IMG/VR virus record: IMGVR_UViG_3300037851_000141
Span: 160,001 to 224,000 of that record
Source of the DNA: a virus
Taxonomy: Duplodnaviria > Caudoviricetes
Direction: 5' to 3' (one strand)
DNA length: 64,000 nt
How positions within the stretch are numbered: the first letter of the stretch is position 1; each line of letters opens with the position of its first letter. This document shows positions 23,007-38,953 of the stretch, one piece after another. Both the position numbers and the translations under genes were made by a program. The notes under the pieces are model-generated. The model was not told the DNA's origin, searched no databases, and worked only from the letters and a program-made list of their open reading frames with translations.

Positions 23007-23123
23007 TACTCCTTAGTTCAATGGTAGAACATCGGCCTTGATCGCTATAGGAAGCAATGTAGTTCAAGTCTACAAGTGATCACCATGGAGCCGAGAATGC
23101 TGGTTCGAATCCAGCAGGAGTAA
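23007..23123 (+). tRNA. interrupted tRNA, best reconstructed as tRNA-Gln(TTG), with 46-nt mini-tRNA insert at 23040-23085
   Basis: TACTCCT/AGGAGTA, D arm GTTC/GAAC, TCGGC/GCCGA stem; CTT+TGGA after removal of insert. Confidence 0.75.
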
Positions 23124-23129
23124 TTTTAT

Positions 23130-23201
23130 ACCCCTAAAGTGAAGATACCGTCACGTTAGCTTGTCGCGCTAAAGGGGAGAGTGGAAGTCTCTCTAGGGGT
23201 G
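23130..23201 (+). tRNA. tRNA-Asp(GTC), atypical D and T loops
   Basis: ACCCCTA/TAGGGGT, G73, TTAGC-TTGTCGC-GCTAA, T loop TGGAAGT. Confidence 0.7.
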
Positions 23202-23251
23202 CTTGCTTTTTCATTTTTTTATGGTACAATAATAATCTACGGAAAGAGGAT

Positions 23252-23734
23252 ATGCCGAAGTTAAAGATAACCCAAGAATTGTTAAACACGATATTAGCTG
23301 AGAGAATAGCGAAGTTTAACAAAGTGTGTACATCTGAGAAACTGAAGAATATCATAAACACAATACCTATAGTCATTTACGTTGATAATCGTACAGCGAC
23401 ATATTTAGGTTATGCTGATACAGTTAAGCGTAGAAACAAGAAAGAGATGAAGCGATACAAGATAAATTCACGTAAGAGTAAGAGTTATTTTTTTGAGGAT
23501 GACAACGTTTATTTTCTTATTGGAGTATGTACGAAGTTATTTAATTCGTATAATTTTAAGAATAATAAGAGTAGGCGTATGGAATTAACTGATACTGTTG
23601 CTCATGAGTTAGGTCATATATTGGAGTTTTTTGTTCATGGATATGAGGAACGTGTTTGTATTTTTCATACGAAGACATGGAAGAGATTTGCTCGTTTATT
23701 TGGATGTAGGAATGTTCGTGCTGTACAAGAATAA
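23252..23734 (+). CDS. SprT-like zinc metalloprotease domain protein
   Basis: VAHELGHI..HTKTWKR. Confidence 0.7.
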   Translation: MPKLKITQELLNTILAERIAKFNKVCTSEKLKNIINTIPIVIYVDNRTATYLGYADTVKRRNKKEMKRYKINSRKSKSYFFEDDNVYFLIGVCTKLFNSYNFKNNKSRRMELTDTVAHELGHILEFFVHGYEERVCIFHTKTWKRFARLFGCRNVRAVQE

Positions 23735-23737
23735 TAT

Positions 23738-23811
23738 GCCCGCGTAGTTTAACAGAAGAACAAAAGGCTACGGACCTTTAGATAGTTTTAGGTGCAAATC
23801 CTCTCGCGGGT
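23738..23811 (+). tRNA. tRNA-Arg(ACG), weak T stem
   Basis: GCCCGCG/CGCGGGT, AAAGG-CTACGGA-CCTTT. Confidence 0.75.
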
Positions 23812-23821
23812 GCTTTTATTT

Positions 23822-23902
23822 GTCCAAGTGGTGAAATGGCAGACACAGCATCTTGAGGGGGTGCCGCCGCGAGGCATGAAGGTTCGACTCCTTTCTTGGA
23901 CA
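23822..23902 (+). tRNA. tRNA-Leu(GAG)
   Basis: GTCCAAG/CTTGGAC, loop TTGAGGG, variable arm. Confidence 0.88.
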
Positions 23903-23909
23903 TAAGTAT

Positions 23910-23993
23910 GGGGCTGTACGCAAACTGGAAAAGCGGCTTGTTTTCTTAGAATTCAAGTGTTTTTGAAGGTTCGATTCCTTTCCAGCCCCACCA
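23910..23993 (+). tRNA. atypical tRNA-Leu(TAG)-like gene with expanded anticodon arm
   Basis: GGGGCTG/CAGCCCC-A-CCA; CTTG-TTTTCTTAGAATT-CAAG; extra C in T stem. Confidence 0.55.
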
Positions 23994-24020
23994 ATAAAAA
24001 CTCTCAGTTGTCGTTATAAT

Positions 24021-24581
24021 ATGTTGATGGAATATCGTCAAATAATACGTCGGTTATATAAGTGGGTATTTTTTAAGAAGCACCACAAGTTATTTTTTCA
24101 CAATTGTTATCCTATTAATTGGTTTGAGTCTGATTTTATTTCAATAACTGGATCTGATTTTATACATGAGTTTGAGGTAAAGCGTACTGCTGCGGATTTT
24201 AGGAATGATTTTACAAAGGAAGTGAAGCATAGTTGGTTAGGTGGAAAGCGTGATATAGTTAAGTTAGATGAGCGGCATAAGCGTGGTTTGTTGAATGTTG
24301 AGAAGAATGATGATGATACGGTAAAGATTCAATACGAGTATGATTTATCTAAGTTTGAGGGGCCTAATTATTTTTGGTATGTTTGTCCTGTTGGAGTAAT
24401 AAAGATTGAGGATATTCCAAGTTATGCGGGTTTAATTGAGGTAAATGATAAGAATTTAGTGATGAATATAGTTAAAGAGGCACCAAGGCTACATAAGAAT
24501 AAGATTACAATTGAGCGTAAGCAGCAGTTATGGATGGGCATTATGTTTAAGTACTGGAAGGCTTATTATAAAGAAAAGTGA
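24021..24581 (+). CDS. MmcB-like PD-(D/E)XK protein
   Basis: ESDFIS..EFEVKRTAADF; FWYVCP; YAGLI. Confidence 0.7.
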   Translation: MLMEYRQIIRRLYKWVFFKKHHKLFFHNCYPINWFESDFISITGSDFIHEFEVKRTAADFRNDFTKEVKHSWLGGKRDIVKLDERHKRGLLNVEKNDDDTVKIQYEYDLSKFEGPNYFWYVCPVGVIKIEDIPSYAGLIEVNDKNLVMNIVKEAPRLHKNKITIERKQQLWMGIMFKYWKAYYKEK

Positions 24582-24642
24582 AATCTCTTGAATGGTGATT
24601 AGATGTTGGTATAATAGTGTGAGCCATTGAAAGGGAACCCTG

Positions 24643-25002
24643 ATGCCATATATACAGCAATGTGATCGTGAGAAGTTTGAGGTTGACATAAATTCTACTG
24701 ATTATGCTGTTGGATTGCGGACAAAGATGGAGAAGTGTGTAGCTGGAATAAATGATGTTGGAGAGTTGAATTATTTTATTACTTGTATTTGTCAGGAGTA
24801 TATTAAGAAGAATGGTTTGAGGTATAAGTATCTGAATGATGTTATAGGTGTATTGGAGTGTTTGAAGCTTGAGTTATATCGTAAAATTGGTGGACCGTAT
24901 GAGGACATTGCTATTGCTAAAAATGGTGATGTTCATATTCTTGATGATTTGATGAATAAAGCGGCTAAGTCTGTTCAACAAGATTATTCTAAAAAGGATT
25001 GA
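24643..25002 (+). CDS. conserved phage hypothetical protein
   Basis: MPYI..GELNYFIT..IGVLECLKLELYR..PYED. Confidence 0.75.
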   Translation: MPYIQQCDREKFEVDINSTDYAVGLRTKMEKCVAGINDVGELNYFITCICQEYIKKNGLRYKYLNDVIGVLECLKLELYRKIGGPYEDIAIAKNGDVHILDDLMNKAAKSVQQDYSKKD

Positions 25003-25006
25003 ATAA

Positions 25007-25525
25007 ATGGGATACCTAAAGAACAAAGTTGTATATTTATGTGGACCAATAACCAATGTATCTGATGATGGGACGACATGGAGAAACTATTTAACTCCTA
25101 TACTTGAGACTAAGTTTGGTATTATAGTAGACGATCCATGTAAGAAAACTATTGATGGTGTTGGTGAGATTGGGGCAGATAAACTGTACTTTAAGAAATT
25201 GATAAAAGAAAGGCAATTTGAGAGAGTTAAGAAGGAATTTTACAAGATTATACGTAAGGATTTGAAATCAGTAGACAAGTCAGATTTTTTGATTTTTTAT
25301 CATGAGCCTAAGATTGCTACTGTTGGAACATATCATGAGGTTGTAAATGCTGTAAATAGTAAAAAGCCAGTATTATTGATGTGTGAGGAACAGAATCTTG
25401 ATAATCTGAATCCTTGGTTATTGACATTGATAAAGAGTCAGTGGTTATTTACAAATTGGGATGACATGTTATTGTATTTAGAGCAGATAGATAATGAGCG
25501 GTTGGATACGAGTCATTGGTGGTGA
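25007..25525 (+). CDS. nucleoside 2-deoxyribosyltransferase-like protein
   Basis: VYLCGPI, DLKSVDKSD, GTYHE. Confidence 0.75.
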   Translation: MGYLKNKVVYLCGPITNVSDDGTTWRNYLTPILETKFGIIVDDPCKKTIDGVGEIGADKLYFKKLIKERQFERVKKEFYKIIRKDLKSVDKSDFLIFYHEPKIATVGTYHEVVNAVNSKKPVLLMCEEQNLDNLNPWLLTLIKSQWLFTNWDDMLLYLEQIDNERLDTSHWW

Positions 25526-25526
25526 T

Positions 25527-26297
25527 ATGGAGGATTTTCAAGATGACAAGATTATGCGAGAGTTAAAAAATACCTGGAAGAATCAAAAACCACATCTTAA
25601 AAATATAAGTATTGTTTTAGAAAATAGGACTATAGTTGAACGAGAAGGTGATGAGACTCGGCGTACAGTTGCTAATGATTTTTTACAATTGCTTAAAGAA
25701 AATATTAATAAAATAAAACCTGAAATAGTAAAAACAAAAACTGGAGTTGGGTTATTTTTAGATTATTCCAGTTTATTAAAAGAAAAGTTTGAGATTCTTT
25801 TTTATGTATTTGAGGACGGTAATGCTGATTTAGGATATTGGGATAATGATAAAAAGTTAATGTATGTAAATATATTGGATAACGTTGAATTTACTAATAT
25901 TATAAAAAATAAAAAGTATTTAATGTTATTTGATATTTATAGTTCTGTAATCTTTCATGAATTGATACATAGATTTGATCATATGAGATATTTAGGAAGA
26001 CATAAGCCATTGGAGACTGATGCTTATGTTAATACTTATGAAGAGTTTAATGCGTTTTATCAACAGTATGCTCGTTCAGTTGATATATTAGTTAGCAAGA
26101 TGAAAACAATTGATGAGTTTTATAAAAGATTTGGAATAAGTGCTGCTGGATTAATTGCTGATTTTTGGAAGATTGTTCCTAATGATATGAAAAAAGAAAT
26201 AAAGTCGAGTAATAAGTGGAACAATAAATGGAACAAGAGGTTATATCAGCTTTATTATGAAAAATTGAGTAAGTTTCAGAAAAATAGAAACTCCTAA
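25527..26297 (+). CDS. hypothetical protein with HExxH motif
   Basis: IFHELIHRFD..EEFNA. Confidence 0.65.
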   Translation: MEDFQDDKIMRELKNTWKNQKPHLKNISIVLENRTIVEREGDETRRTVANDFLQLLKENINKIKPEIVKTKTGVGLFLDYSSLLKEKFEILFYVFEDGNADLGYWDNDKKLMYVNILDNVEFTNIIKNKKYLMLFDIYSSVIFHELIHRFDHMRYLGRHKPLETDAYVNTYEEFNAFYQQYARSVDILVSKMKTIDEFYKRFGISAAGLIADFWKIVPNDMKKEIKSSNKWNNKWNKRLYQLYYEKLSKFQKNRNS

Positions 26298-26327
26298 CCT
26301 TTTTGTTTATTTAATTGTATCTTATTA

Positions 26328-26549
26328 TTAGTTATAGAAAATAAAGTCATAAAATACTCCACATTTAGGACATCCAATACCTTTCATATGAGACATTATT
26401 TGTTGATAAAATTTTCCATGTATAGGACAAATAATCTCCATTTTATCATTTACTGTTTTTATAATTTGAGTTATATCATATGTATATTTGTTTTTATGTA
26501 TTTTATTTGAGCGAGCCATTATTTCGTCAAACGATAAACGTTTTCCCAT
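26328..26549 (-). pseudogene. truncated DUF723-type zinc-ribbon endonuclease remnant
   Basis: Single HKNKYTY..CPIHG..CPKC repeat, homologous to repeats in 57633-59213. Confidence 0.65.
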
Positions 26550-26697
26550 TTGAAGAAACCTCCACTTTAGCGTTTAATATAATAAATCTTATATATTCGC
26601 TAACTGTGTTAAATTTTAATTGTTTTGTTTTTTCTTTGATTTGATTTAATTCACTTTCTGAAACTTTTATGTTTATTTGTTTATTTTTTATAATCAT
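26527..26697 (-). CDS. ribbon-helix-helix small protein (56 aa, not in ORF track)
   Basis: MIIKNKQINIKVSESELNQIKEKTKQLKFNTVSEYIRFIILNAK; AGGAG RBS; TATAAATA at 26727-34 (minus). Confidence 0.7.
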   Translation of the reverse strand: MIIKNKQINIKVSESELNQIKEKTKQLKFNTVSEYIRFIILNAKVEVSSNGKTFIV

Positions 26698-26747
26698 TGA
26701 TGACTCCTATTATATACTATATGGTATATTTATATCTAAAAAAGAAC

Positions 26748-26776
26748 CTCCAACATAAAAATATTGGAGGTTCTTA
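26748..26776 (-). terminator. intrinsic terminator
   Basis: AAGAACCTCCAA/TTGGAGGTTCTT inverted repeat with A-run on left. Confidence 0.65.
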
Positions 26777-26790
26777 ATCATATCAATCTA

Positions 26791-27018
26791 TCAAACTGAG
26801 AATGCCCAGAAATCGTTCTTGGGGATGTGATGTACTTGTCCGGTTACTTGGTTGACGGCGATGATCTTTTGACCTTGAGTAGCGCCAGTATCAACTTTTG
26901 ATTGAACTTTCAATACGCCGAAACCGACCATATTGCGAAGGTCATAGAAAAGGGTTCCGACAGTAGCAGCCGCGAACGTGAGATTGGGCTTGCCGGTGTA
27001 GATGTAGTTAGTAGCCAT
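26791..27018 (-). CDS. small hypothetical protein, likely highly expressed early gene
   Basis: GGAGG RBS, own promoter and terminator, GC-richer codons. Confidence 0.7.
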   Translation of the reverse strand: MATNYIYTGKPNLTFAAATVGTLFYDLRNMVGFGVLKVQSKVDTGATQGQKIIAVNQVTGQVHHIPKNDFWAFSV

Positions 27019-27147
27019 AGTGGCCTCCTTGTTGTTGTGTACGATATTTCTTTATCTGTACAATAGTATTTAGAAAGAGATTTTATTTTTTCTTGTTATA
27101 ATATACGAATAGGATTATTTTATTAGAAACTTTTATAAATAACTATT

Positions 27148-27807
27148 ATGTATAAAAAAGATATTTACGAACAGGCTATGATGTTAAAACGAAATGGACT
27201 AAAAACTATCCAAGTCCATAGTATTACAGGAGTTCCGATAAGTACATTGAAGGGTTGGTTTAGAAAAAATAGTAGAAAAGACCACCGGGAATATGCTGAT
27301 CCTTTACAGTTGTTGGAATCATTCAAGGACGAAAACAATAGAAACTTTTTATATGATATTTATTCTTATTTGTTGGGATTTTACCTTATTCGTGGGCATT
27401 TATATGAACATGGTGACACTTGGGAGTTAAGTTTTTTCATATCAGACCATTTATTTAAGAATTTCAACAATAAGTTTAAGTTTTTATTTGGTCGTGGTTT
27501 TTTCATCATTAAGAACAAGAAGCAGGCATTCTCTTTATATTCTAAGTATTTGGACAAGTTATTTCCTAAACCAAAAGAGTTAAAAGAATGGCAAACCCGC
27601 ATATTGAATATTACTGAGTTATTTAAGGGAATGGTACATACAGTTGACATAAAAGATGGTTATTTTAGGATTAGGTGTAATGATGATAACGCTTTAAGGG
27701 TATTTCAAGGGTGTTGTATTCAATTGGGTATTGCTTTTCAAAAAAATGGGAATATAATTGAAGTAACTGACCGGGAATCCTGGCTACGCATCAGAAGGAT
27801 TTACTAA
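27148..27807 (+). CDS. HTH plus degenerate LAGLIDADG-like protein
   Basis: N-terminal HTH (GVPISTLKGW); YSYLLGFYLIRG resembles LAGLIDADG helix. Confidence 0.55.
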   Translation: MYKKDIYEQAMMLKRNGLKTIQVHSITGVPISTLKGWFRKNSRKDHREYADPLQLLESFKDENNRNFLYDIYSYLLGFYLIRGHLYEHGDTWELSFFISDHLFKNFNNKFKFLFGRGFFIIKNKKQAFSLYSKYLDKLFPKPKELKEWQTRILNITELFKGMVHTVDIKDGYFRIRCNDDNALRVFQGCCIQLGIAFQKNGNIIEVTDRESWLRIRRIY

Positions 27808-28622
27808 TGGACAAAAAGATTATTAGTTATAGCAATTCTGAGATACAAGCTGCTATTTCAGATTTATTAACTAAAGTATCAGTGATTAAAGATAAGATCA
27901 AGAAAGTTGTTGGTATTGCTAATGGTGGGTTGTATATTAGTATTCCTATTGCTGAAAGTCTAGGCAAGGAACATTCTGAAATAAATATCAAATTCTATAA
28001 TAAATCTGGTGTTGCTCTTGATAAACCGATGATAGATGTTGTTGATACGAGTAAAATACAAACTCCGTTTTTATTGATAGATGATTTGATAGATAGTGGG
28101 AGAACCATAAATTATTTTATTGATAAGACTGGTTATATTCAAGGTAAACATTTTTATATTGGTTGTTTATTTTATGATGAAAAGAATGAGTTTAGAGTTG
28201 TTCCCGATTTTTATGTTTATCCGAAACCTGATGCTTGGGTTGAATTTCCTTGGGAGAAGGTGACAAGTTATACATCATCACAAATTTCATTGGCATTAGT
28301 TGAGCGAACTCCATATTTGACATTAGATAAACTTAAACAATTGAGAGAGATTTGTTTGAAGGCTAGTCGTGGACCATGGACATTTGATGAAGATGAAGAT
28401 TGTCAAAGGATATTTTCTACAAATCTTCATGAAATTGCTAAAGATGAATATATGATTGGGCATCCTTTACAACTTGCTAAATGTCCGAAAAGGAATAGTG
28501 GGTTTGCTGAATATTGGTTCACTGAAAATGACCTGAAGTTTTTGATTTCGGCTTCCAAGTACATGTTGCCGATGGTTGAAACTCTTATAAAAGTTGCTGA
28601 GGAAGAAAATAATGAAAGCTAG
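27807..28622 (+). CDS. type I phosphoribosyltransferase with extra C-terminal domain
   Basis: GIANGG, LLIDDLIDSGRT, WVEFPWE. Confidence 0.85.
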   Translation: MDKKIISYSNSEIQAAISDLLTKVSVIKDKIKKVVGIANGGLYISIPIAESLGKEHSEINIKFYNKSGVALDKPMIDVVDTSKIQTPFLLIDDLIDSGRTINYFIDKTGYIQGKHFYIGCLFYDEKNEFRVVPDFYVYPKPDAWVEFPWEKVTSYTSSQISLALVERTPYLTLDKLKQLREICLKASRGPWTFDEDEDCQRIFSTNLHEIAKDEYMIGHPLQLAKCPKRNSGFAEYWFTENDLKFLISASKYMLPMVETLIKVAEEENNES

Positions 28623-28977
28623 GAGATACCCATTTCGTAGTCGTAGGTTGCGTAAGAAATATCGTCAAAAAGAATTTGCTGAATATGGATTTGAGGTATC
28701 TGGAAGTTATTTTGGTGAGTGTAAGTGTTTGTGGTTTGTTAGAGACGAAGTTTTTATAAATTTAGCTGAAATGATTGAAAAAGCCGGGTTTTATTTTGGT
28801 GGTGGATATAATGATAATACTTGGGGTTTTACGTTTGGTAAGTATCGTGGTTCCATTACTTTAGAAGATAAAAATAAGATACTCGAAGAGATTAAAAAGA
28901 TGGAAGGTGCTGGTCTAAAAATTGAAAAAGTTAGTGATTTGATTGACCTTTGGTACGAAAATCGGGATCCAAAATAG
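28612..28977 (+). CDS. yggL: YggL-like (DUF469) ribosome-associated protein
   Basis: RSRRLRKK..EFAEYGFEV and C-terminal LIDLWY. Confidence 0.75.
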   Translation: MKARRYPFRSRRLRKKYRQKEFAEYGFEVSGSYFGECKCLWFVRDEVFINLAEMIEKAGFYFGGGYNDNTWGFTFGKYRGSITLEDKNKILEEIKKMEGAGLKIEKVSDLIDLWYENRDPK

Positions 28978-28980
28978 TTC

Positions 28981-29008
28981 TTGACTTTGATTTTTTGTCG
29001 GCTATAAT
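28981..29008 (+). promoter_or_regulatory. sigma70-type promoter of Ro60 gene
   Basis: TTGACT-N16-TATAAT. Confidence 0.8.
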
Positions 29009-29063
29009 GTTCGTCGCAAAAGCCAATAAACCCTTGTCCCTCCAAGAAAGGAAGGAATGTATC

Positions 29064-30695
29064 ATGGCTAACAAGAATCTTTTCCAATCATCTGCTGGTA
29101 TGGCTCCAATCACTGACGCTCTTAATGAGGCTGGTGGTGTAGCTTATAACCTCTCTGATAAAGCGGCCCTTGCTCAGATGGTGGTTACTGGTTGCTTTAA
29201 TCAGACTTTTTATGCTGATGCCAAAACTCAGCTTGATACTGTGTTGAAGCTGGCAAACAAGGTTCCAACCAAGTTTGTCGCTCAACTGGCGGTATATGCT
29301 CGCACTAATGCTTATATGAAGGATTCTCCTGCGGTTCTTGCTGCTGTGCTGGCAAGTCGTGATATGGGAATGCTGAAGTCTATTTTTGCCACTGTAATTG
29401 ATAATGGCAAGATGGTTCGCAACTTCTGCCAAATCCTTCGTTCTGGTGTTGTTGGTCGCAAGTCATTTGGAACTGCTGCTAAGAAACTGGTTCAAAACTG
29501 GCTGATTAACCGTAAGCCAGAGCAGTTGTTCCGTGATATTGTCGGCAACGATCCTTCTCTGTCAGATGTTATTAAGATGACTCACCCTCATCCAAAGAAC
29601 AAGACTCAAGAGTTTATGTTTGCCTATATCTGTGGTCGAGTCAACATTGAAGTCAAGGGTAATACTTTGACTGCTACCAAGGTGTATAATGGCAAGACTC
29701 AAACCATCAAGTCTGAGAATATTCCAGATATTGTCAGAGATTTTGAGATTTTCAAGGCGAAGAAACTTGCTGGAAAGAGTGCTGGTGAGACTCCAGATGT
29801 GCCTTTCCAAATGTTGTCTTCATTGAATATGGGTACTGCTGAGTGGACTGAAATGGCTCGCAATGGGTCTTGGACGTTTACTCGCATGAATCTGAACAAT
29901 TTCTTGAAGTATGATGTGTTCAAGGATAAAAAGATGGTTGATATGATTGCTGATCGACTTTCTTCATCAACCGAAGTGAAGAAGTCCAGAGTATTCCCAT
30001 ATCAGCTACTTACTGCGTTCAAGTCAGTATCTTCAGAAATGCCAACCAAGATCACCAACGCACTTCAAGATGCTATGGAGATTGCTGTTGGGAACATTCC
30101 TGATCTTGACGGTAAGAAAATCTATGTTTGTGTTGATACCAGTGGAAGCATGCAGAGTGCTGTAACTGGTGATCGTGGCGGTGGTACTACTGCGACAACT
30201 TGTGTTGATGTAGCTGGACTTGTAGCCTCTGCGATTCTGCGTAAAAATCAAGATACCAGCGTAATTCCATTTGATACTGACGTTCACTTGGTTTCTCTTA
30301 ATTCACGGGATAGTGTCATGACCAACGCACAAAAGTTGGCTCTGCGTGGGGGTGGTACTGATTGTTCTTGTGCGCTTCGGTATCTTAACAACATTGAGGC
30401 TAAAGGGGATGTCGTTATCTTTGTCTCTGATAATGAGAGTTGGGCTGATCGTGGATATGGTCGTGGAACCGGAACGCACAACGAATTCCTGAAATTCCGT
30501 AAGCGTAATCCAAATGCGGTTCTGATCAATATCGACATTCAGCCAAACACTTATACTCAAACCAAGGAATCACCTTATATCTTCAATATTGGCGGATTCT
30601 CTGATCAAGTATTTGAGATTATCGCTGCCATTGCCAAAGATAGACTCAATAAGGATTGGTTCGTGACTGAGATTGAAAAAGTTAAGATTGGCTGA
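29064..30695 (+). CDS. rsr: Ro60/Rsr TROVE-domain RNA-binding protein with vWA domain
   Basis: NEAGGVAY..LAQ..TG..NQTFY TROVE start; VDTSGSM, GGTDCS, SDNESW, GGFSD; AAGGAAGGA RBS before 29064. Confidence 0.93.
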   Translation: MANKNLFQSSAGMAPITDALNEAGGVAYNLSDKAALAQMVVTGCFNQTFYADAKTQLDTVLKLANKVPTKFVAQLAVYARTNAYMKDSPAVLAAVLASRDMGMLKSIFATVIDNGKMVRNFCQILRSGVVGRKSFGTAAKKLVQNWLINRKPEQLFRDIVGNDPSLSDVIKMTHPHPKNKTQEFMFAYICGRVNIEVKGNTLTATKVYNGKTQTIKSENIPDIVRDFEIFKAKKLAGKSAGETPDVPFQMLSSLNMGTAEWTEMARNGSWTFTRMNLNNFLKYDVFKDKKMVDMIADRLSSSTEVKKSRVFPYQLLTAFKSVSSEMPTKITNALQDAMEIAVGNIPDLDGKKIYVCVDTSGSMQSAVTGDRGGGTTATTCVDVAGLVASAILRKNQDTSVIPFDTDVHLVSLNSRDSVMTNAQKLALRGGGTDCSCALRYLNNIEAKGDVVIFVSDNESWADRGYGRGTGTHNEFLKFRKRNPNAVLINIDIQPNTYTQTKESPYIFNIGGFSDQVFEIIAAIAKDRLNKDWFVTEIEKVKIG

Positions 30696-30709
30696 AACAG
30701 TCAGATAAT

Positions 30710-31617: not shown

Positions 31618-31664
31618 CATTCTAAAAATTGATGTAGAATGATGGCGTTAGAAAGGGGTGGATT

Positions 31665-32456
31665 ATGCCTCTTCAAGAAGTACGCGCCAAGCATTTTAGC
31701 AACGGATCGGTATATGCTCTTAAAACCGATTCTGGACACCCTATTGAAACAACTGATACTTTTCTTCCGTTCTACACAAAGAATGCGAAAGATCAACATA
31801 CTAACGTTCTAACGGATTATAATTTAGGTGATCGTAGTGAACGTTGGATGGTTGGTGTTTCTGTAAGTTCAAGCTGTCTAGTTCGTTGTAAGTTTTGTGC
31901 TACTGGTAAGTTAAAAGGATTCCGTAATTTGGCTGCGGATGAAATTGTTGACCAAGTTGAATTTGTATTGGCCAAGAATCCAGAATATAAGTTTAGTAAT
32001 GCGAACGAACATAAAATCAACTATACAAGAATGGGTGAACCGTTTCTTAATATTGAAGCTGTTCGTAAAGCGATTGAGATAATTGATCAACGATATCCAA
32101 ATACTCACCATTATGTCAGCACTATCGGAATTGCTGGTGCTGATTATTCGTGGATCAAAGATAACATCACTTTACAACTGAGTTTACATAGCCTTGATGA
32201 CGCTCGTAGAAATGACCTAATTCCATATAAGAACAAAGTTAGTGTTGAAGAGTTAGGCAAGATCAGAACCAAGAGTCATTTGAAGACTACAATCAATCTG
32301 ACTCTCGTTGATGAAGCAGATTTTGATATTGATATTATTAAGAAATATTTTGATCCAGAGTATTTCTTTATCAAGTTATCGCCTATTAACAAAAACGACA
32401 TTTCAATTGCTAATGGGCTTGGTGACGGTATAATCAAAGCAACAAACCTGAAGTAA
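31665..32456 (+). CDS. RlmN/Cfr-like radical SAM enzyme, N-terminal part
   Basis: CLVRCKFC, MGEP, STIG, LSLH; lacks AACGQL C-terminus. Confidence 0.85.
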   Translation: MPLQEVRAKHFSNGSVYALKTDSGHPIETTDTFLPFYTKNAKDQHTNVLTDYNLGDRSERWMVGVSVSSSCLVRCKFCATGKLKGFRNLAADEIVDQVEFVLAKNPEYKFSNANEHKINYTRMGEPFLNIEAVRKAIEIIDQRYPNTHHYVSTIGIAGADYSWIKDNITLQLSLHSLDDARRNDLIPYKNKVSVEELGKIRTKSHLKTTINLTLVDEADFDIDIIKKYFDPEYFFIKLSPINKNDISIANGLGDGIIKATNLK

Positions 32457-32466
32457 GGAGCCTACC

Positions 32467-32604
32467 ATGGACACTCAAACCATCCAAGAACAACTCACTC
32501 AAGCCGGCTATGATAATGCGATTGCCTGTGCTACTGAAGCTGAAATCAATGCTAAAGCGGCTTGCGGGCAATTGGCTATCATTACCGAGGCTGATGCGCA
32601 ATAA
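32467..32604 (+). CDS. 45-aa peptide carrying the RlmN-type AACGQL catalytic-Cys motif (not in ORF track)
   Basis: MDTQTIQEQLTQAGYDNAIACATEAEINAKAACGQLAIITEADAQ; AAGGAG RBS. Confidence 0.75.
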   Translation: MDTQTIQEQLTQAGYDNAIACATEAEINAKAACGQLAIITEADAQ

Positions 32605-32608
32605 AATA

Positions 32609-32616
32609 TATAAATA
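32609..32616 (+). promoter_or_regulatory. T4-type late promoter
   Basis: TATAAATA upstream of CCA enzyme. Confidence 0.6.
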
Positions 32617-32638
32617 GTGGGTATAAGGTAAAACAATT

Positions 32639-33979
32639 ATGCCCACTTTTTCGATAAAACACATTCTGGATGAAGCATTTGGTCGTACTGTTGATGACTT
32701 AAATGCTAAACTTGTTCAATTAGCTAAAACCTGGGGTGGTAAAGTATATATTGTTGGTGGTGCCGTTCGTGATGAATTGATGGGCATTAAACCTAAAGAT
32801 ATTGATTACCTTGTCACTAAAATTGAATCATCTGATCTTGCTAAAAAACTACAAAATATTCTTCCTGGTGCCAAGGTAAATGAAGTAGGTAAATCTTTTG
32901 GTATCATAAAACTTGTTGTTGGTGATGATGAATATGATTTTGCTATTCCAAGAGCCGATGTTGATAGAGATAATGTAAAAACTGATCCAAATATCCCGGT
33001 TGAACAAGATTTATTGAGAAGAGACATAACAATAAATTCTATGGCTAAGGATGTTGAAACTGGAGAAATAATATCTGCTTTTGGTGAAGATGGCGTTGCT
33101 GATGTTAAGAATAAGATAATAAAAGCAACAGGCGACCCAAAACAGAGATTTAAGGAAGATCCGTTAAGGATGTTAAGGTGTATACAATTTTCTGCTCGTT
33201 TTGGATTTGATATTGAACCAAACACATTTAAAGCAATTCAAGAACTTAAAGATGATTTCAATCAATTATCAGTAGAACGATTTAGAGACGAATTCTATAA
33301 AGGTTGGACTAAAGGTAATAAAGACACCACGAAATTCTTACAACTATTAGTGGATACTGGTGTAGGTAATCTCTTATTTGGTTCAGATTTTAAGCCTATT
33401 GCCATTGATATAAAGAATAAAGATCCAGAGTCAGCATTCAATGCGCAATATATAGCAATGTTCCTTAATGGCGGCGACCCAACCAGATTAAGCAACTTTA
33501 ACTATGATCATGATTTGATTTTTGTTGCTCGACTCTTAAAATCTTTTATTGATAATGGTATTGATTGGAATGAATTGAAAAAGTTATATAAACATGGAGA
33601 TTTATTCCCAATTATTGCTGAAGCTTTTTATCTTATTGATCCTAAATTGGGTGATAAACTAAAGAGTATGTTATCAAAACCTCTTATACAACGGTTAAAT
33701 AAATCTCGTTGGAATATATGGGAGTTGCCGATTCAAGGTGGAGAAATACTTGAAATAATGGGTGGTAAAATACAAAATAAATCAATACCAGTTGTTATAC
33801 AGAAACTCATAAAAGCCTATCAAAATGGAGAAATAGCAATAAATCCAGATAATGAAGATGAATCTAAAGAACTTGCTAAAAAATATATATCAACTGTACT
33901 GGTAAACGATAAAGATATAAAAGAATCAGATCGTCTTGGTATATTTGAATCAAGAATCTTCAACATTTTCAACCGATAA
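32639..33979 (+). CDS. cca: class II tRNA nucleotidyltransferase (CCA-adding enzyme)
   Basis: VGGAVRD, DIDY, RRDITINSMA, EDPLRMLR..F..RF, ER. Confidence 0.92.
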   Translation: MPTFSIKHILDEAFGRTVDDLNAKLVQLAKTWGGKVYIVGGAVRDELMGIKPKDIDYLVTKIESSDLAKKLQNILPGAKVNEVGKSFGIIKLVVGDDEYDFAIPRADVDRDNVKTDPNIPVEQDLLRRDITINSMAKDVETGEIISAFGEDGVADVKNKIIKATGDPKQRFKEDPLRMLRCIQFSARFGFDIEPNTFKAIQELKDDFNQLSVERFRDEFYKGWTKGNKDTTKFLQLLVDTGVGNLLFGSDFKPIAIDIKNKDPESAFNAQYIAMFLNGGDPTRLSNFNYDHDLIFVARLLKSFIDNGIDWNELKKLYKHGDLFPIIAEAFYLIDPKLGDKLKSMLSKPLIQRLNKSRWNIWELPIQGGEILEIMGGKIQNKSIPVVIQKLIKAYQNGEIAINPDNEDESKELAKKYISTVLVNDKDIKESDRLGIFESRIFNIFNR

Positions 33980-34012
33980 AAGAATATAAATACAATACGA
34001 GGAACTTATATT

Positions 34013-34747
34013 ATGGCTAAACTATCTCATCTCCTTGAATCATTCTTTAAGTCAGACACAACATCATTTGAGAAACATAAAAAAAGTCAAGAAGACGTTG
34101 AACGTATCCAATCATATGTTCAAGGATTAAAGAACTTCTACCTTGCCCTAAATGGTAAAAAGATAGAAGTTATTAAAGAGTCATTCGCATCTCTACTTCC
34201 TATATTTGAGTCATATAAGTCTGATAAACTGTTTGCTATTGAAAAAGATATTGCTGTTAAACTCAATGATGCTAAAGATGAAACTGTTATTGCTGATATT
34301 ATGAAGATGTTTGGTCAAATAAAAGAGGTATTAGTTGAAAATAAGGCTCCAGAAGCAGTTATCAATGAGATTTCTGTTGACACCACTGGAACACCCGATA
34401 GAATAGAATCACCAAAAGACATACCAGCAGAACCCGCCAAAACTATAACTCCAGAAACTCCGGTTGTAGCTGATGGAACAGCCGAACCTACACCAGAACA
34501 AAAACAATCAGCAATTGAGGATGGTTTTAATGAGGGTCGAAAGTGGTATCGTGAAAACTTTGATAAGCCAGAAGCTAATGCCAAATCTCACGTTAACCAA
34601 CTTGCCGAAACTGTACATGCTGAACGGCCTTATAAGTGGGTTACGAACTATATGTCTGGATTTAATCAAGGTTGTAAGTTCGAAGAAACCATCCAACGTG
34701 ATCTTAATCCAGATAAGTTTCCAAAAGAAGATGCTCAACAAGCCTAA
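34013..34747 (+). CDS. putative internal head protein
   Basis: TATAAATA 33985-92; LLES, IKES, LVE, INE motifs. Confidence 0.65.
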   Translation: MAKLSHLLESFFKSDTTSFEKHKKSQEDVERIQSYVQGLKNFYLALNGKKIEVIKESFASLLPIFESYKSDKLFAIEKDIAVKLNDAKDETVIADIMKMFGQIKEVLVENKAPEAVINEISVDTTGTPDRIESPKDIPAEPAKTITPETPVVADGTAEPTPEQKQSAIEDGFNEGRKWYRENFDKPEANAKSHVNQLAETVHAERPYKWVTNYMSGFNQGCKFEETIQRDLNPDKFPKEDAQQA

Positions 34748-34988
34748 ACCTCTTGAAAATGTTGCCGTCCATCATATAATTTATTTGTATGTTCCATTTA
34801 AGTTATTTAATGTCAAAATTCCATTTATAAAAAAGAAACAAAGATTTTTCTTATGTACAACTTACACTGGATTAAAGCTAATGGATGATAATGCTTATAT
34901 TGTCTCCGACCCACATATATTAAATTTGCCAGAAATCGCAGCATTATGGCAAAAATATAAGAATCATTATTTGTTCTTGAATCAATAA
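34731..34988 (+). CDS. hypothetical protein
   Basis: 3' part of ORF-track 34473-34988; fills gap. Confidence 0.4.
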   Translation: MLNKPKPLENVAVHHIIYLYVPFKLFNVKIPFIKKKQRFFLCTTYTGLKLMDDNAYIVSDPHILNLPEIAALWQKYKNHYLFLNQ

Positions 34989-35037
34989 AAAACCATGTTA
35001 TAATATCAACCTCAACAAAAGGAGTTAATTCTCTCAT

Positions 35038-35565
35038 ATGGTCCCTTTTCAACAACCTGATCAAAAACAGGCTATGATTAATGAACGAATCTCAGCCAGA
35101 GAAGTCTTATTAATCTCTTCAACCGGCGAGAAGCTTGGAATAATAAATACCAAGGAAGCACTACAAAAAGCAAAAAATGATGGTTTAGATTTGGTTCTTG
35201 TAGCCGAAACATCTAAGCCACCAGTTTGTAAAATAATGGATTATAACAAACTTATTTACGAACAAAAGAAACGCGAAAAGAAAAATGAATCACATGGTAA
35301 AGTCGAGATAAAAGAACTCCGTTTCGGCATCTGTATTCAAGACCATGATCTACAAATTAAGGCTAAACAAGCAAAAGAATTCTTGGAAAAGGGTTGGAGA
35401 GTCAAGTTATCAGTTCAATTCTCTGGTCGCGAAAAACAACATCCCGAATTAGGTATTGATGTCCTAAATCGTTTTATCAAGTTTGTTGGCGAAGATAAAT
35501 CAAAATTCGAGAACCAACCAAGACTTGAGGGACGATACATGAATACATACTTGCTCAAAAAATAA
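35038..35565 (+). CDS. infC: translation initiation factor IF-3
   Basis: INERI, GLDLVLVA..PPVCKIMDY, IKELRF, HDLQIK, GRE, P.LEGR. Confidence 0.95.
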   Translation: MVPFQQPDQKQAMINERISAREVLLISSTGEKLGIINTKEALQKAKNDGLDLVLVAETSKPPVCKIMDYNKLIYEQKKREKKNESHGKVEIKELRFGICIQDHDLQIKAKQAKEFLEKGWRVKLSVQFSGREKQHPELGIDVLNRFIKFVGEDKSKFENQPRLEGRYMNTYLLKK

Positions 35566-35593
35566 TATAAATAAGGTAATATAGGAGCAAGTT

Positions 35594-36100
35594 ATGACAT
35601 TCAAAGACACATTAAAGAAAAAATTGGAAGAAACTGTTGGTTATGGTGTTCAATTCCCCGGTCAAATGCCTATACAAATGATAGATTTCCCTTCCCAACA
35701 ACCAGAAGTAAATGGAATTGAACCAAAAATAACCTCTGGTGAAACAACTCCATTTGGACAACCAAGACAAGATAAGGCTATGGAAGTAAATCAACCACAA
35801 GCTGATACCGCTGTCATTGATGAAGTTGGAAATCTCTTGCTCACTATTGGTTTTATCCTTAACAATGCTGGCTTAATTTCAGATCGTTTTAATGCTGGTG
35901 AAATTCTTGATTTTGTTAACCATAATTTCGAACAACCTATGGCTCCAACTGAACAAAATCCTCTAAGTCCTGTAAATGGTGGATGTTGTGGCGGCGCGCA
36001 TAGTTGTGGATCAGAATGTTCTTGCGTTTCTCAAAATCCTGGTTATACTTATCTTCAGGAGAAACGCAAACTATTTGAGTCAAGGCACCGACCCAAATAA
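35594..36100 (+). CDS. putative internal head protein
   Basis: TATAAATA 35566-73; MTFK..LEE leader; LFES C-terminus. Confidence 0.65.
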   Translation: MTFKDTLKKKLEETVGYGVQFPGQMPIQMIDFPSQQPEVNGIEPKITSGETTPFGQPRQDKAMEVNQPQADTAVIDEVGNLLLTIGFILNNAGLISDRFNAGEILDFVNHNFEQPMAPTEQNPLSPVNGGCCGGAHSCGSECSCVSQNPGYTYLQEKRKLFESRHRPK

Positions 36101-36123
36101 GTAATAGATAAGGCCAAAGACTT

Positions 36124-36825
36124 ATGAATAACATTAAACAACAATCTTCTGATATTATTTTAGAAGGCTATTGGAAATATGGTTGGGTTATTCCAGTTAG
36201 TCTTTTTGTTTTTTGTATTATCTTTATGATTTTACGTAGAATTGATACTGATACTGATCAACGTATTTTATCCCAAACAATTATAGCTGCCGCACCTTCG
36301 CAAGACGATAAACAGTTGATGGTGCGGTTTGAAGATATTGATATTAAACCTGAAGATAAACAAGTAATAATGAACGATCCACCAGTTTTTATCAATTATG
36401 GTGGTAAAATATATAAAGAACTTGAAAATGGACTATATGAAGATAAAGATGGTGGATTGTGGCGAAAAATAAAGGTTTCTACCACAGCATATACTTGGAT
36501 TGATGATGGATTTGATTCAAGTATTGGTGCGGGCGATGGGGTCACTTCTATTGGTAAATGCGCAATTAAAACCTATGGAATTGCCGCTGATCCTAAAGCA
36601 ATTCCCTATGGGTCAACTGTTCATGTAGCTGGTTATGGCGTTTACAAGGTTGATGATACTGGTGGAGCTATGCGAAAATCATATAAAAAAGGTGAAATAC
36701 GTCTTGACCTTAGAATTCCTCAAAAAGCTTCAAATGGTCAATGGAGAAGTATATCAACCTGTCGTAATATAGCTAAAAGACATGGATATCAGCAAGACCG
36801 AGAAGTTCTGTTGAAAATTCGTTAA
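36124..36825 (+). CDS. membrane-anchored 3D-domain (MltA-like) protein
   Basis: TM helix; IAADP..IPYGS..DDTGGA..RLDL. Confidence 0.8.
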   Translation: MNNIKQQSSDIILEGYWKYGWVIPVSLFVFCIIFMILRRIDTDTDQRILSQTIIAAAPSQDDKQLMVRFEDIDIKPEDKQVIMNDPPVFINYGGKIYKELENGLYEDKDGGLWRKIKVSTTAYTWIDDGFDSSIGAGDGVTSIGKCAIKTYGIAADPKAIPYGSTVHVAGYGVYKVDDTGGAMRKSYKKGEIRLDLRIPQKASNGQWRSISTCRNIAKRHGYQQDREVLLKIR

Positions 36826-36930
36826 GACAAGATATAATTACTATTAGTTAATTTACATCATGAAGCATATCCGCCTTGGTGACTTTAATTCCCGTTGGCT
36901 AGTCATCCCAACTAAAAGAAAGGAAGGAAC

Positions 36931-37722
36931 ATGGACATGCACTTTCAATCCGTAGTCGTAACTCTCGTTGGAGCCGACAATAAACCCTTTAGGGAATATG
37001 ATCCACACCAAGTAGAAAATGGCAGACGTTGTAATCTGATTATGCCATTTGATACTGAATATAAGGTTTTCGTTAAGAATCTCGCAGACCGTAGAATTAA
37101 ACTTGATATTGAAGTTGATGGAACTAATGTATCAGGTAAAGGTCTTATTATTGGTTCTAAAGAAAATGCCTATATTGAACGATTTGTTGATGCGGCTCGT
37201 AAATTCAAGTTTGTAAAGGCTCAAGGTGCTGGCGCAAACCCAAATGTAGCCGATCCAACAAGTCCTGAAAATGGTATAGTGAAAATCCGAGTAGCCAAAG
37301 AGAAACAAGCTACATTAAATTGGAATTATTATTACAATCAGCCTTCAATATGGACTTCCCCAATAAATCCATATCCACTAAATCCAGAAATTATTTGTTA
37401 TGGGTCACAGTCAAATCCGACAGGAACACCAATATCATGTTCATATAAAGGTGGTGCTGGAGATAATATAAAACGAGGGTTCAGCACCAAATCAATGAGT
37501 TTTAGTAGTTTGGCATCTGCTGAGACACAACCAAAGACTGATGTTGGTGCTACTGTAGAAGGTAATAATAGTGGTCAATCTTTCGGCACAACTTACTGGA
37601 ATGGTGATGACGGAGATTCAATGGTATTTACGTTTTATGTTCGTGGCGTCGAGAATGGAATAACACCAGAAGAACAACGTCAATATGAAGAATACCTGCG
37701 TCTCAAAGAAAAATTTGGTTGA
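36931..37722 (+). CDS. conserved hypothetical protein
   Basis: AAGGAAGGA RBS, long ORF. Confidence 0.75.
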   Translation: MDMHFQSVVVTLVGADNKPFREYDPHQVENGRRCNLIMPFDTEYKVFVKNLADRRIKLDIEVDGTNVSGKGLIIGSKENAYIERFVDAARKFKFVKAQGAGANPNVADPTSPENGIVKIRVAKEKQATLNWNYYYNQPSIWTSPINPYPLNPEIICYGSQSNPTGTPISCSYKGGAGDNIKRGFSTKSMSFSSLASAETQPKTDVGATVEGNNSGQSFGTTYWNGDDGDSMVFTFYVRGVENGITPEEQRQYEEYLRLKEKFG

Positions 37723-37746
37723 CAAATAGAAAAATGTTGGTAAAAT
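37719..37746 (+). promoter_or_regulatory. sigma70-type promoter of tRNA
   Basis: TTGACA-N16-TAAAAT followed by 11-bp leader hairpin AGGGGCGTATC/GGTACGCCTCT. Confidence 0.7.
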
Positions 37747-37790
37747 AGGGGCGTATCAGATATAAATCACTTGGTACGCCTCTTTTACAT

Positions 37791-37907
37791 GCTGGTTTAG
37801 CTCAGGGGTAGAGCAGTTGTTTTGCTGGAATATAGGAAAGCAAGACGGTTCGAGTCCGTCATTCTGGAATAAACAACAGGTCGGGGGTTCAAATCCCTCA
37901 ACCAGCA
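37791..37907 (+). tRNA. interrupted tRNA, best reconstructed as tRNA-Thr(TGT), with 45-nt mini-tRNA insert at 37825-37869
   Basis: GCTGGTT/AACCAGC, GCTC/GAGC D arm, GTTGT/ACAAC stem, AGGTC variable loop; TTTG+TAA after removal. Confidence 0.8.
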
Positions 37908-37921
37908 TTATAAATAATACT

Positions 37922-38260
37922 ATGAACATAAACCATATCTTTGACAACTTTATAGAAACTGGAAAAATGAGTGTTGATGATGCTAAATTGTTTCTTGACC
38001 AAATCTTAGAGTTCACCAAAGGTCAAGAATTTACAAGTGTCATTGATGTTTATTCTTTTTTAGTTGAACATGGTTTGGTTGAAGATAAACTAAAATTCCA
38101 TGAGCCAACTAAAAGAATGTATCTTGATTCGTCTAAAGCACATAAGGTAATAAGATTCTTTAAGTCATTGGATCTTATTGAATATACAGACGAAGATTTT
38201 GAGGACTTCAAGAAAAAAGTACTTGACTCTGAAACATCTCTTGGTAAAATACTACCATGA
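37922..38260 (+). CDS. hypothetical late protein
   Basis: TATAAATA 37909-16; ORF-track start 37817 overlaps tRNA and is rejected. Confidence 0.65.
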   Translation: MNINHIFDNFIETGKMSVDDAKLFLDQILEFTKGQEFTSVIDVYSFLVEHGLVEDKLKFHEPTKRMYLDSSKAHKVIRFFKSLDLIEYTDEDFEDFKKKVLDSETSLGKILP

Positions 38261-38351
38261 GACATAAACATGAGTCAAATCATCTTTTATCTATCTGAGT
38301 GCGGACCCTAAACAGGTCGTTGGCACACGAATTGACAAGTATATATCGTAC

Positions 38352-38426
38352 TGCGGGATGGTGTAACGGTTAGCATAGCGGCCTCATAAGCCGCAGATTT
38401 AGGTTCAAATCCTGATCCCGCCACCA
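38352..38426 (+). tRNA. tRNA-Met(CAT), initiator-like
   Basis: 1:72 T-C mismatch, GCGGC-CTCATAA-GCCGC, CCA. Confidence 0.85.
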
Positions 38427-38428
38427 AT

Positions 38429-38490
38429 AATCCGAATGCTGATAAGATTACATATCATTAAAAACCAATCTTATCAAATTTTGTCGGATT
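38429..38490 (+). ncRNA. short Y-RNA-like RNA 2
   Basis: AATCCGA/TCGGATT, ATGC/AATTTTG internal loop, TGATAAGATT/AATCTTATCA. Confidence 0.7.
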
Positions 38491-38503
38491 TTATTTCTGA
38501 GTT

Positions 38504-38575
38504 AATACCGAATGCTTGTTGAGAGTACATTTCCTTGTAAGAAACCAACCCCTCTCAACCACTTTTGTCGGTATT
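38504..38575 (+). ncRNA. short Y-RNA-like RNA 3
   Basis: AATACCGA/TCGGTATT, GTTGAGAG/CTCTCAAC, loop TACAT-TTC-CTTGTAA-GAA. Confidence 0.7.
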
Positions 38576-38583
38576 TTTCTTTA

Positions 38584-38693
38584 TGAGGGTTCGAATTCAA
38601 GTTGCTGGTGGAATTCCCACGACCTACCTACCAGTAGTAAAGAGCTTGATAGTAGAATAGCTAAGCGCGGCCAGTCGTGACCTCAAAACTGGC
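38584..38693 (+). ncRNA. unassigned structured, possibly pseudoknotted RNA
   Basis: TGAGG/CCTCA, TCAAG/CTTGA, 10-bp TTGCTGGTGG/CTACCAGTAG, GCCAGT/ACTGGC. Confidence 0.4.
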
Positions 38694-38698
38694 GTTAC

Positions 38699-38776
38699 GC
38701 TCTCATCGTCTAGCCCGGTTAGGACATTTGGTTTTCATCCAAAAAACGTGGAGTTCAAATCTCCCTGAGAGTACCA
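38699..38776 (+). tRNA. tRNA-Glu(TTC)
   Basis: GCTCTCA/TGAGAGT, TTTGG-TTTTCAT-CCAAA, CCA. Confidence 0.88.
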
Positions 38777-38778
38777 AT

Positions 38779-38841
38779 GAAGCGAATGCAGATAAGATTA
38801 CATTCTGGAAAAAATAAAATCTTATCAAATTTTGTCGCTTC
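38779..38841 (+). ncRNA. short Y-RNA-like RNA 4
   Basis: GAAGCGA/TCGCTTC, GATAAGATT/AATCTTATC, AATTTTGTC. Confidence 0.7.
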
Positions 38842-38847
38842 TTATAT

Positions 38848-38953
38848 GCTGCGTTGACAGATCGGTTATGTGCTAGCCTTCCCGAGAAAAGGAGCCTAAA
38901 GCTTTAATTCTCGACCAAAGCTAGAAAGGCGGGTTCGATTCCCGCACGCGGCT
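38848..38953 (+). tRNA. interrupted tRNA, best reconstructed as tRNA-Gly(TCC), with 35-nt minihelix-ACCA insert at 38883-38917
   Basis: GCTGCGT/ACGCGGC, U73, CTAGC/GCTAG stem; CTTCC+AA after removal. Confidence 0.75.

Follow-up and report, generated by a model that had tools for sequence, protein, structure and literature searches.

Transfer RNA-shaped mini-introns in the anticodon loops of a phage from a freshwater metagenome and a suggested route for their splicing

To our knowledge, bacteria and phages are thought to remove transfer RNA (tRNA) introns solely by group I self-splicing, and bacteria are without a tRNA splicing endonuclease of the Sen/EndA type. The closest described relatives of the elements reported here are the 'enigmatic' introns of Lak megaphage tRNAs for Tyr, Phe, Thr and Gly (Devoto et al. 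2019, PMC6784885, Table S6 and Fig. 4). The Lak Thr intron was said there to 'encode a possible tRNA', the other introns were without an Rfam hit, and no mechanism was offered. It was also reported that intron-less alleles of the Lak tRNAs exist, and a 1-nucleotide (nt) boundary offset was derived from them by the authors. In the literature no paper was found that proposes a mechanism for these introns. The present study deals with three short inserts, A, B and C, in the anticodon loops of tRNA-Gln, tRNA-Thr and tRNA-Gly of the window, by which the whole 64,000-nt stretch of DNA analysed is meant (bases 160001-224000 of the single 331,849-bp IMG/VR phage contig IMGVR_UViG_3300037851_000141, from a freshwater metagenome, with an estimated completeness of 92% and a GC content of 34.9%), and with a fourth insert, D, elsewhere in the same genome. 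The inserts are best read as genuine intervening sequences that form a phage-specific class of tRNA-shaped mini-introns. Judged by sequence and predicted fold, they are the minimal, CCA-ended form of the published, unexplained kind of phage tRNA intron.

When introns were allowed, ARAGORN found 26 tRNA genes genome-wide, five of them with an interrupted anticodon loop. Loci A, B and C were called as interrupted tRNAs with inserts of 46, 45 and 35 nt, and these lengths, given in the original prediction, are upheld by the intron-mode calls together with the cloverleaf and Rfam evidence. The tRNA-Gln(UUG) of locus A (23007..23123, + strand) is split between nucleotides 34 and 35 into exons 23007-23039 and 23086-23123, and the tRNA-Thr(UGU) of locus B (37791..37907, + strand) is split at 35/36 into exons 37791-37824 and 37870-37907. 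Both are recognised by Rfam as well as ARAGORN, the Rfam tRNA model (positions 1-71) covering them end to end at 59.3 and 58.4 bits. The tRNA-Gly(UCC) of locus C (38848..38953, + strand; ARAGORN intron mode) is split at 36/37 into exons 38848-38882 and 38918-38953 and is a clean cloverleaf that scores under the Rfam gathering threshold. Outside the window, the tRNA-Arg(UCU) of locus D (genome 275593-275714; L130:594-714) is split at 36/37 by a 48-nt insert, and the Rfam model again runs end to end over it (48.8 bits). In this tRNA-Arg the acceptor stem is topped by an A1-C72 mismatch, a defect of the type that could be repaired by a Thg1-like 3'-5' polymerase, which the phage encodes. The fifth interrupted gene is a tRNA-Lys(UUU) (genome 316550-316852, - strand; L131:611-829) with a 227-nt group I intron. 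ARAGORN in its ordinary mode gave 20 tRNA calls in the window, one of which, the 'tRNA-Ser(gct)' at 37792-37868, is an artefact that fuses the 5' half of locus B with the T arm of insert B. The number of ordinary tRNA genes in the window is thus 19, and not about 21 as counted originally.

Inserts A, B and D are built on a common plan, with a 7-bp stem, a linker of 11-13 nt that includes ATAGGAA, and a 5-bp T arm with the loop TTCRANT. The 3' strand of the stem directly abuts the T arm, as the acceptor and T stems do in a tRNA. In insert A (23040..23085, + strand) the stem is formed by 23040-23046 and 23075-23081, the linker ATAGGAAGCAA occupies 23047-23057, the T arm with the loop TTCAAGT lies at 23058-23074, and the insert ends in ACCA (23082-23085). 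Insert B (37825..37869, + strand) has a stem of 37825-37831 and 37861-37867 with two G-U pairs, the linker ATAGGAAAGCAA, a T arm at 37844-37860 with the loop TTCGAGT, and a tail of AA without CCA; its 3' boundary is inferred solely from the requirement for a 7-nt loop. The stems of A and B are therefore of 7 bp and not 6 bp as first described, while the shared linker ATAGGAA(A)GCAA, the perfect 5-bp T arm common to both and the ACCA ends of A and C stand as predicted. Insert D (L130:630-677, 48 nt) has the stem GCGGAGA/TCTCTGC, the T loop TTCGAAT and the tail TCCA. Insert C (38883..38917, + strand) is a plain hairpin with an 11-bp stack and no T loop; a 6-bp stem CGAGAA/TTCTCG is followed by a 2x2 internal loop and a 5-bp inner hairpin, and the end is ACCA (38914-38917). 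Its stack of about 13 layers is near the 12-bp acceptor/T stack of a tRNA.

The minimum-energy fold of each isolated insert is the shape described, with z-scores from -1.1 to -4.2, the lowest being the -4.2 of insert C relative to shuffled sequences, at a fold energy of -11.5 kcal/mol. With a strict descriptor that required a 7/7 stem, a 5/5 T arm and a TTCRANT loop, three matches were obtained in the genome against 0.06 expected, so the design is far beyond chance, and all three matches sit in anticodon loops. Inserts A and D have everything expected of a minihelix substrate, namely acceptor and T stems stacked coaxially over about 12 bp, a T loop and a single-stranded 3' NCCA. Insert B is without the CCA, and insert C is without the T loop but has ACCA. 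A G3-U70 wobble was noticed in the acceptor-like stem of inserts B and D, in this orientation in two of the 14 modules compared below. G3-U70 is the main identity mark of alanyl-tRNA synthetase on minihelices, and its occurrence in B and D may be chance.

When each insert is taken out, starting at its own +1 and including its tail, a 7-nt anticodon loop is restored, CTT/TGGA in A, TTTG/TAA in B, CTTCC/AA in C and CTTCT/AA in D. The genes spliced in silico were called by ordinary-mode ARAGORN as Gln(ttg), Thr(tgt), Gly(tcc) and Arg(tct). No other gene for Gln, Thr, Gly or Arg(UCU) tRNA was found by ARAGORN in the 331,849-bp genome; the statement that the window contains no intact Gln, Thr or Gly tRNA thus extends to the entire genome. 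The codons read by the interrupted tRNAs are heavily used. Gln is encoded by CAA in 81% of cases, AGA leads among the Arg codons with 42%, and ACA and GGA account for 36% of Thr and 31% of Gly codons, respectively. Five of six minimal introns (A, C and D, and the Gln and Asn introns of locus L167 in another phage) have the NCCA tail exactly at the boundary that restores the 7-nt loop, for which the chance is about 6e-9. It was further found that all five interrupted tRNAs, tRNA-Lys included, have U34, as compared to 6 of the 21 uninterrupted ones (Fisher p = 0.007). This bias is consistent with a link to anticodon nucleases; it does not show one.

Relatives with and without the insert, which the original prediction had proposed to look for, were found. 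A groundwater run (X2) yielded contigs of a relative whose sequence downstream of locus A is about 96% identical. In one of these contigs the sequence corresponding to window position 23039 continues directly with TGGAGCCGG and the window is resumed at 23125, which gives an uninterrupted, syntenic tRNA-Gln(UUG). Since this intron-less allele has the junction CTT/TGGA as predicted, the boundaries of insert A are fixed. A second X2 contig runs across locus B, where the insert is present. The metagenome contig L162 is more distant, with a neighbouring protein 45% identical. It keeps the gene order of ORF (open reading frame), tRNA-Thr, ORF, Met, Glu, one additional Met and Gly(UCC), and both its Thr and Gly(UCC) tRNAs are intron-less, which supports the isotype calls of B and C. 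Boundaries and isotypes given originally for Gln, Thr and Gly therefore hold, by the X2 junction for A, the L162 alleles for Thr and Gly, and the calls on the genes spliced in silico.

A scan for the CCA-ended module brought up the phage G003, represented by loci L167 and L168 of a 113-kb fragment. A 46-nt insert homologous to A interrupts its tRNA-Gln(UUG), with the linker ATAGGAAACAA, the T loop of insert A, the tail GCCA and three compensatory pair changes relative to A. This insert lies one bond 3' of the A site (CTTT/..GCCA/GGA versus CTT/..ACCA/TGGA), and both restore CTTTGGA. A shift by one nucleotide with the loop restored means that the rule '+1 to CCA' tracks the ends of the insert and not a fixed site in the tRNA. 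A second insert in the same G003 cluster, 45 nt long and running from +1 through A-CCA, leaves a class I body with an Asn(GUU) loop when removed. In the phage G002 (345 kb, 42 tRNAs) a tRNA-Leu(UAA)-like gene (L011:6371-6536) contains a module with the ATAGGAA linker and the end ...ACC(A) inside the gene, preceded by 31 extra nt that form a CAG-AGTAAA-CTG hairpin. Two tRNA-Thr(UGU) genes of G002 (L160:1501-1656 and 2503-2655) have introns of about 80 nt with the same build of hairpin and mini-tRNA as in Leu. Free-standing copies of the module outside any tRNA were present in other phages (L115, L129, L144 and L165, among the matches listed). The linker of L129 is identical to that of insert B, and CCA is not encoded in three of these four copies (L115, L129 and L144, among the matches listed).

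Across 14 modules the helix cells are paired in 167 of 168 cases, three to five pair types occur at 11 of 12 positions, and the pair closing the T loop is G-C in all 14. Conservation of the insert structure across relatives is thereby established. This comparison used a Python descriptor with a hand-registered pair table, since MAFFT placed length differences within stems, and no covariance model entered into it. A generic pattern scan of IMG/VR gave mostly chance hits among the matches listed, and narrower patterns were used afterwards. Among the chance pattern hits on IMG/VR contigs, L098 and L121 have a tRNA whose anticodon loop is 8 nt long and which ARAGORN reports as tRNA-??? (cgca) with a 4-base anticodon, and in their relative L029 the anticodon loop is deleted. 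None of 43 pattern hits in bacterial genomes had the module structure. In the relative G001, whose Thg1-like protein is 55% identical, the tRNAs are six ordinary ones without inserts; the search with the CCA enzyme as query found no relative. A BLAST search of GenBank phages with the tRNA regions and the L011 intron returned ordinary tRNA matches only.

The Lak introns of Table S6, as read here, begin with a 5' hairpin whose loop is ARTAAA; then come an A-rich spacer and a 7-bp stem stacked on a T arm, and 1-3 nt follow. With the 1-nt offset of Devoto et al. (2019) the loops become CTTGT/AA, CTTCC/AA and CTGAA/AA; the Thr, Gly and Phe introns then end just after the discriminator of the tRNA-like part, that is, at a site of RNase Z type, and the Tyr intron ends 2 nt past the stem. 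Like the present inserts, the Lak introns are short, ORF-less insertions in the anticodon loops of huge-phage tRNAs, without an Rfam family, with a 7-bp stem and T arm and a loop of TTCGAAT type. The original prediction regarded the inserts as a candidate new class, and this cannot be maintained, as the Lak introns already hold the acceptor/T-arm module. The 7-bp and 5-bp helices and the T-loop consensus of that module are found in A, B and D, and C has a hairpin of equivalent length. The two forms differ in that the Lak introns are 79-114 nt long with a hairpin and spacer of 26-31 nt and no CCA, whereas the present inserts, of 35-48 nt, begin at +1 of the stem and end in NCCA (A, C and D) or AA (B). 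The 5' hairpin and the CCA-less discriminator end of the Lak type are absent from the present inserts and were found in the G002 Leu gene. As this G002 intron has both a hairpin of the Lak Phe type and the ATAGGAA linker, the Lak and the present forms belong to one family. The 5' ends of the G002 and Lak introns share (C/T)TA(N)CAG, a motif that may be a second recognition element.

With group I introns (RF00028) the inserts share the location in the anticodon loop. They differ in being 5-6 times shorter, in having no P3-P8 core and in giving no RF00028 match, and such short elements without the core cannot be self-splicing group I ribozymes. A permissive cmscan of 22900-23200 returned only the host tRNA, and at 35-48 nt the inserts were rejected as group I introns. 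The intron in the anticodon loop of tRNA-Lys(UUU), on the other hand, matched RF00028 at 49.1 bits (E = 8e-11), a little short of the gathering score (50). One phage thus houses tRNA introns of two kinds, the mini-inserts and a compact group I intron. A bulge-helix-bulge intron of archaeal or eukaryal type was rejected as well, on the basis of the phage genome and the predicted folds. No tRNA_int_endo (PF01974) match was obtained in the 332-kb genome, all four archaeal control genomes being matched, and the minimum-free-energy folds contain the cloverleaf and the minihelix and no 3-4-3 motif, though no dedicated bulge-helix-bulge search was run. The earlier statement that the inserts resemble neither group I nor archaeal introns is supported as regards group I and an archaeal-type endonuclease encoded by the phage. 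The Sen/EndA introns are alike in being short introns of the anticodon-loop region whose removal depends on protein and is followed by ligation of the tRNA halves; they are canonically inserted at 37/38, as against 34/35, 35/36 and 36/37 here, and their removal leaves a cyclic phosphate and a 5'-OH, as against the 3'-OH and 5'-P ends expected here.

A further analogy is offered by mascRNA of MALAT1, mitochondrial 'tRNA punctuation' and synthetic minihelices. In these systems an embedded mimic of the tRNA top half, with a 12-bp stack, a T loop and a CCA-type 3' end, directs the end-processing enzymes. The modules of these systems serve to separate transcripts from one another, and we know of none that lies within another tRNA and has its flanks rejoined. 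The repair of tRNA-Lys by T4 Rnl1 and Pnkp resembles the present case in that a phage ligase seals a break in the anticodon loop, and Rnl1, Rnl2 and a P-loop kinase-like ORF are found here too. It differs in that T4 repair answers damage by the host, whereas here the break would be programmed by the intron and no healing would be needed if RNase P and RNase Z cut.

It is known that bacterial RNase P cleaves acceptor/T-arm minihelices and pairs with the 3' RCCA, that the ends produced by RNase P and RNase Z are 3'-OH and 5'-P, and that T4 Rnl1 seals nicks in tRNA anticodon loops, which are the classic substrate of Rnl1-type ligases. The following route can be drawn. The precursor would fold as the host cloverleaf with the minihelix mounted on its anticodon loop. 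The 5' exon would be freed with a 3'-OH by host RNase P, acting at position +1 of the minihelix, and the 3' exon with a 5'-phosphate by a tRNA 3'-end endonuclease of RNase Z/BN type, acting right after CCA. The anticodon loop would now be nicked but kept together by the acceptor and anticodon stems, and the phage Rnl1 (or Rnl2) would seal it with no end healing. It should be noted that five of the six minimal introns extend as a tRNA-like unit from +1 to CCA, even where the bond is shifted, which argues that the insert itself is recognised by the tRNA end-processing machinery. Among the enzymes named in the original prediction for a search of the genome, an Rnl1-type ligase (genome 301931-303142, - strand) and a complete T4-type Rnl2 (283572-284579, - strand), both suited to 3'-OH/5'-P ends, are encoded, together with a P-loop polynucleotide-kinase-like ORF (genome 312290-312718); RtcB was not found, nor did the phage genome yield a Sen-type endonuclease, an RNase Z-like protein, RNase P RNA, LigT or a reverse transcriptase. 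G003, the other phage with minimal CCA-type introns, likewise has Rnl1 and Rnl2. The observed part of this picture comprises the anatomy of the inserts, the precise limits of insert A, conservation together with covariation, the isotypes and the ligase genes. The route is chemically coherent; its enzymatic steps and the use of the spliced tRNAs are what we infer, as are the benefits named in the original prediction, namely concealed anticodons, timed tRNA activation and decoys. We rate splicing by RNase P, a post-CCA cut and an Rnl ligase at about even chances.

Several points weigh against this route. For many RNase Z enzymes CCA acts as an anti-determinant, and we know of cleavage after CCA only for some, such as Thermotoga RNase Z and E. 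coli RNase BN. The tail of insert B is AA without CCA, which leaves its 3' cut unexplained. In the Lak and G002 introns the boundary of the 5' exon lies 26-31 nt upstream of the tRNA-like +1, with hairpin and spacer between, which means that in the wider family RNase P by itself is not enough to set the 5' splice site. As for the ligases, G002 has no clear RNA ligase, and the intron-less G001 has Rnl1, Rnl2 and RtcB; the presence of ligases is therefore not specific, and the co-occurrence of introns and ligases is suggestive at best. A search for RNA runs containing the phage found none.

It could be that the inserts are real introns which are removed in another way, by an unrecognised phage endonuclease or by a host RNase E, RNase III or toxin-type nuclease that reads the minihelix, with sealing after end healing or by a host RtcB-type ligase. 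The hairpin introns of Lak and G002, which need a 5' cut beyond RNase P at +1, the lack of a clear Rnl ligase in G002 and the CCA-less insert B would all be accommodated; the kinase-like ORF at 312290-312718 could heal 5'-OH ends, and many ORFs of the window are without a family match. However, no candidate nuclease was found, RtcB, LigT and a Sen endonuclease were not found in the phage, and the simplest reading of the exact +1-to-CCA extent seen in five of the six minimal introns is that it fits tRNA end-processing, so that such a route appears rather unlikely. Distinctly less probable is that the precursors are cut and never rejoined, the mini-tRNA (perhaps with the tRNA halves) being the product and possibly a decoy or sponge for tRNA-targeting nucleases or tRNA-binding enzymes. 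The free-standing modules L115, L129, L144 and L165 do give the module an independent existence, but a free-standing gene would suffice with no tRNA sacrificed, whereas the phage would lose its Gln, Thr, Gly and Arg(UCU) tRNAs in spite of perfect cloverleaf bodies, restorable 7-nt loops and heavily used codons.

That the inserts are selfish or accidental and the four loci decaying pseudogenes is very improbable in our estimate. The insert is dispensable in tRNA-Gln, as the intron-less allele of the close relative indicates, B has lost or never had its CCA, the tRNA-Arg host has the A1-C72 mismatch, and C falls under the Rfam tRNA threshold. Against decay, stems and loops are kept in all four bodies, the insert helices covary, insert B is kept in the X2 relative, the design recurs in different tRNAs of unrelated phages, and no other gene of the genome supplies these isoacceptors. 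There is also a slim chance that the mini-tRNA is a mobile element at the RNA level, in which the excised RNA with its 5'-P and CCA-3'OH ends would be ligated by the repair ligase into nicked anticodon loops, copies being occasionally fixed in DNA. Such mobility would explain why the intronic copies have CCA and three of the four free-standing genes do not, why the insertion point wanders between 34/35, 35/36 and 36/37 even in homologous tRNA-Gln inserts, and why all five interrupted tRNAs have U34, tRNAs with U34 being the class favoured by known anticodon nucleases. With no phage reverse transcriptase found, retro-insertion by a phage enzyme is less likely. A corollary of mobility of this kind is that the unspliced precursor, without a recognisable anticodon loop, would be shielded from anticodon nucleases.

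The original prediction placed the inserts in a context rich in RNA end-healing genes, and this proved to be overstated. The Thg1-like protein (16296-17102), the Ro60 protein with TROVE and vWA domains (28950-30695) and the CCA-adding-type nucleotidyltransferase (32639-33979) were confirmed. The two 2H phosphoesterases were not; one is the Acb1 anti-CBASS 2H phosphodiesterase (60563-61147, - strand, 194 aa; PF23474, 37 bits against a cut-off of 27), by its profile match a counter-defence gene and not an RNA-healing enzyme, and the other, the double-HxT ORF at 18246-18695, had no family or profile support. The 2H/LigT families PF13563 and PF02834 had no match in the genome at E <= 0.01, so no LigT-type domain was seen. 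A candidate sigma-70-type promoter, TTGACA-16-TG-TAAAAT (37719..37746, + strand), lies about 45 nt upstream of tRNA-Thr; 11 of its 12 hexamer bases agree with the consensus, the -10 element is extended by TG, and it is a call by consensus match alone.

Other features of the window may be mentioned. The tRNA-Asn(GUU) at 20343-20428 (+ strand) is 86 nt long, unusual for class I (Rfam 43.2 bits over 20344-20427), and a similar 86-nt tRNA-Asn is present in locus L016, which comes from a 164-kb IMG/VR contig. Between this tRNA-Asn and a tRNA-Met there is a YrlA-type Y-RNA-like element (20460-20587, + strand) that matches RF02553 at full length with 47.6 bits (E = 1e-9; gathering score 69). Two TnpB/Cas12f-like genes (21346-22956, + strand, and 39027-40343, - strand) have their 3' ends 50-75 nt from loci A and C. 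The two proteins are 29% identical over the TNB domain. A link of the inserts to a TnpB/IS200/IS605 end or omega-RNA was considered and rejected, as no similarity was seen between the two 3' flanks or between either of them and the inserts, and neither B nor D adjoins a tnpB gene. Depth is missing over both tnpB 3' regions in the X2 relative. On comparison of these sequences, the adjacency is treated as probable coincidence or separate IS activity.

The observation of tRNA-shaped mini-introns is real and robust, and it suggests, and does not prove, the splicing route. The genome is a handy test case, for its four minimal introns vary in T arm and CCA content, it has a group I intron as an internal control and both ligases, and an intron-less allele is at hand in a relative. 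If the route by RNase P, a 3' nuclease and an Rnl ligase is true, it would be a third, enzyme-borrowing way of tRNA splicing, it would give phage RNA ligases a natural role besides the repair of damage, and the 'enigmatic' Lak introns of 2019 would be explained.

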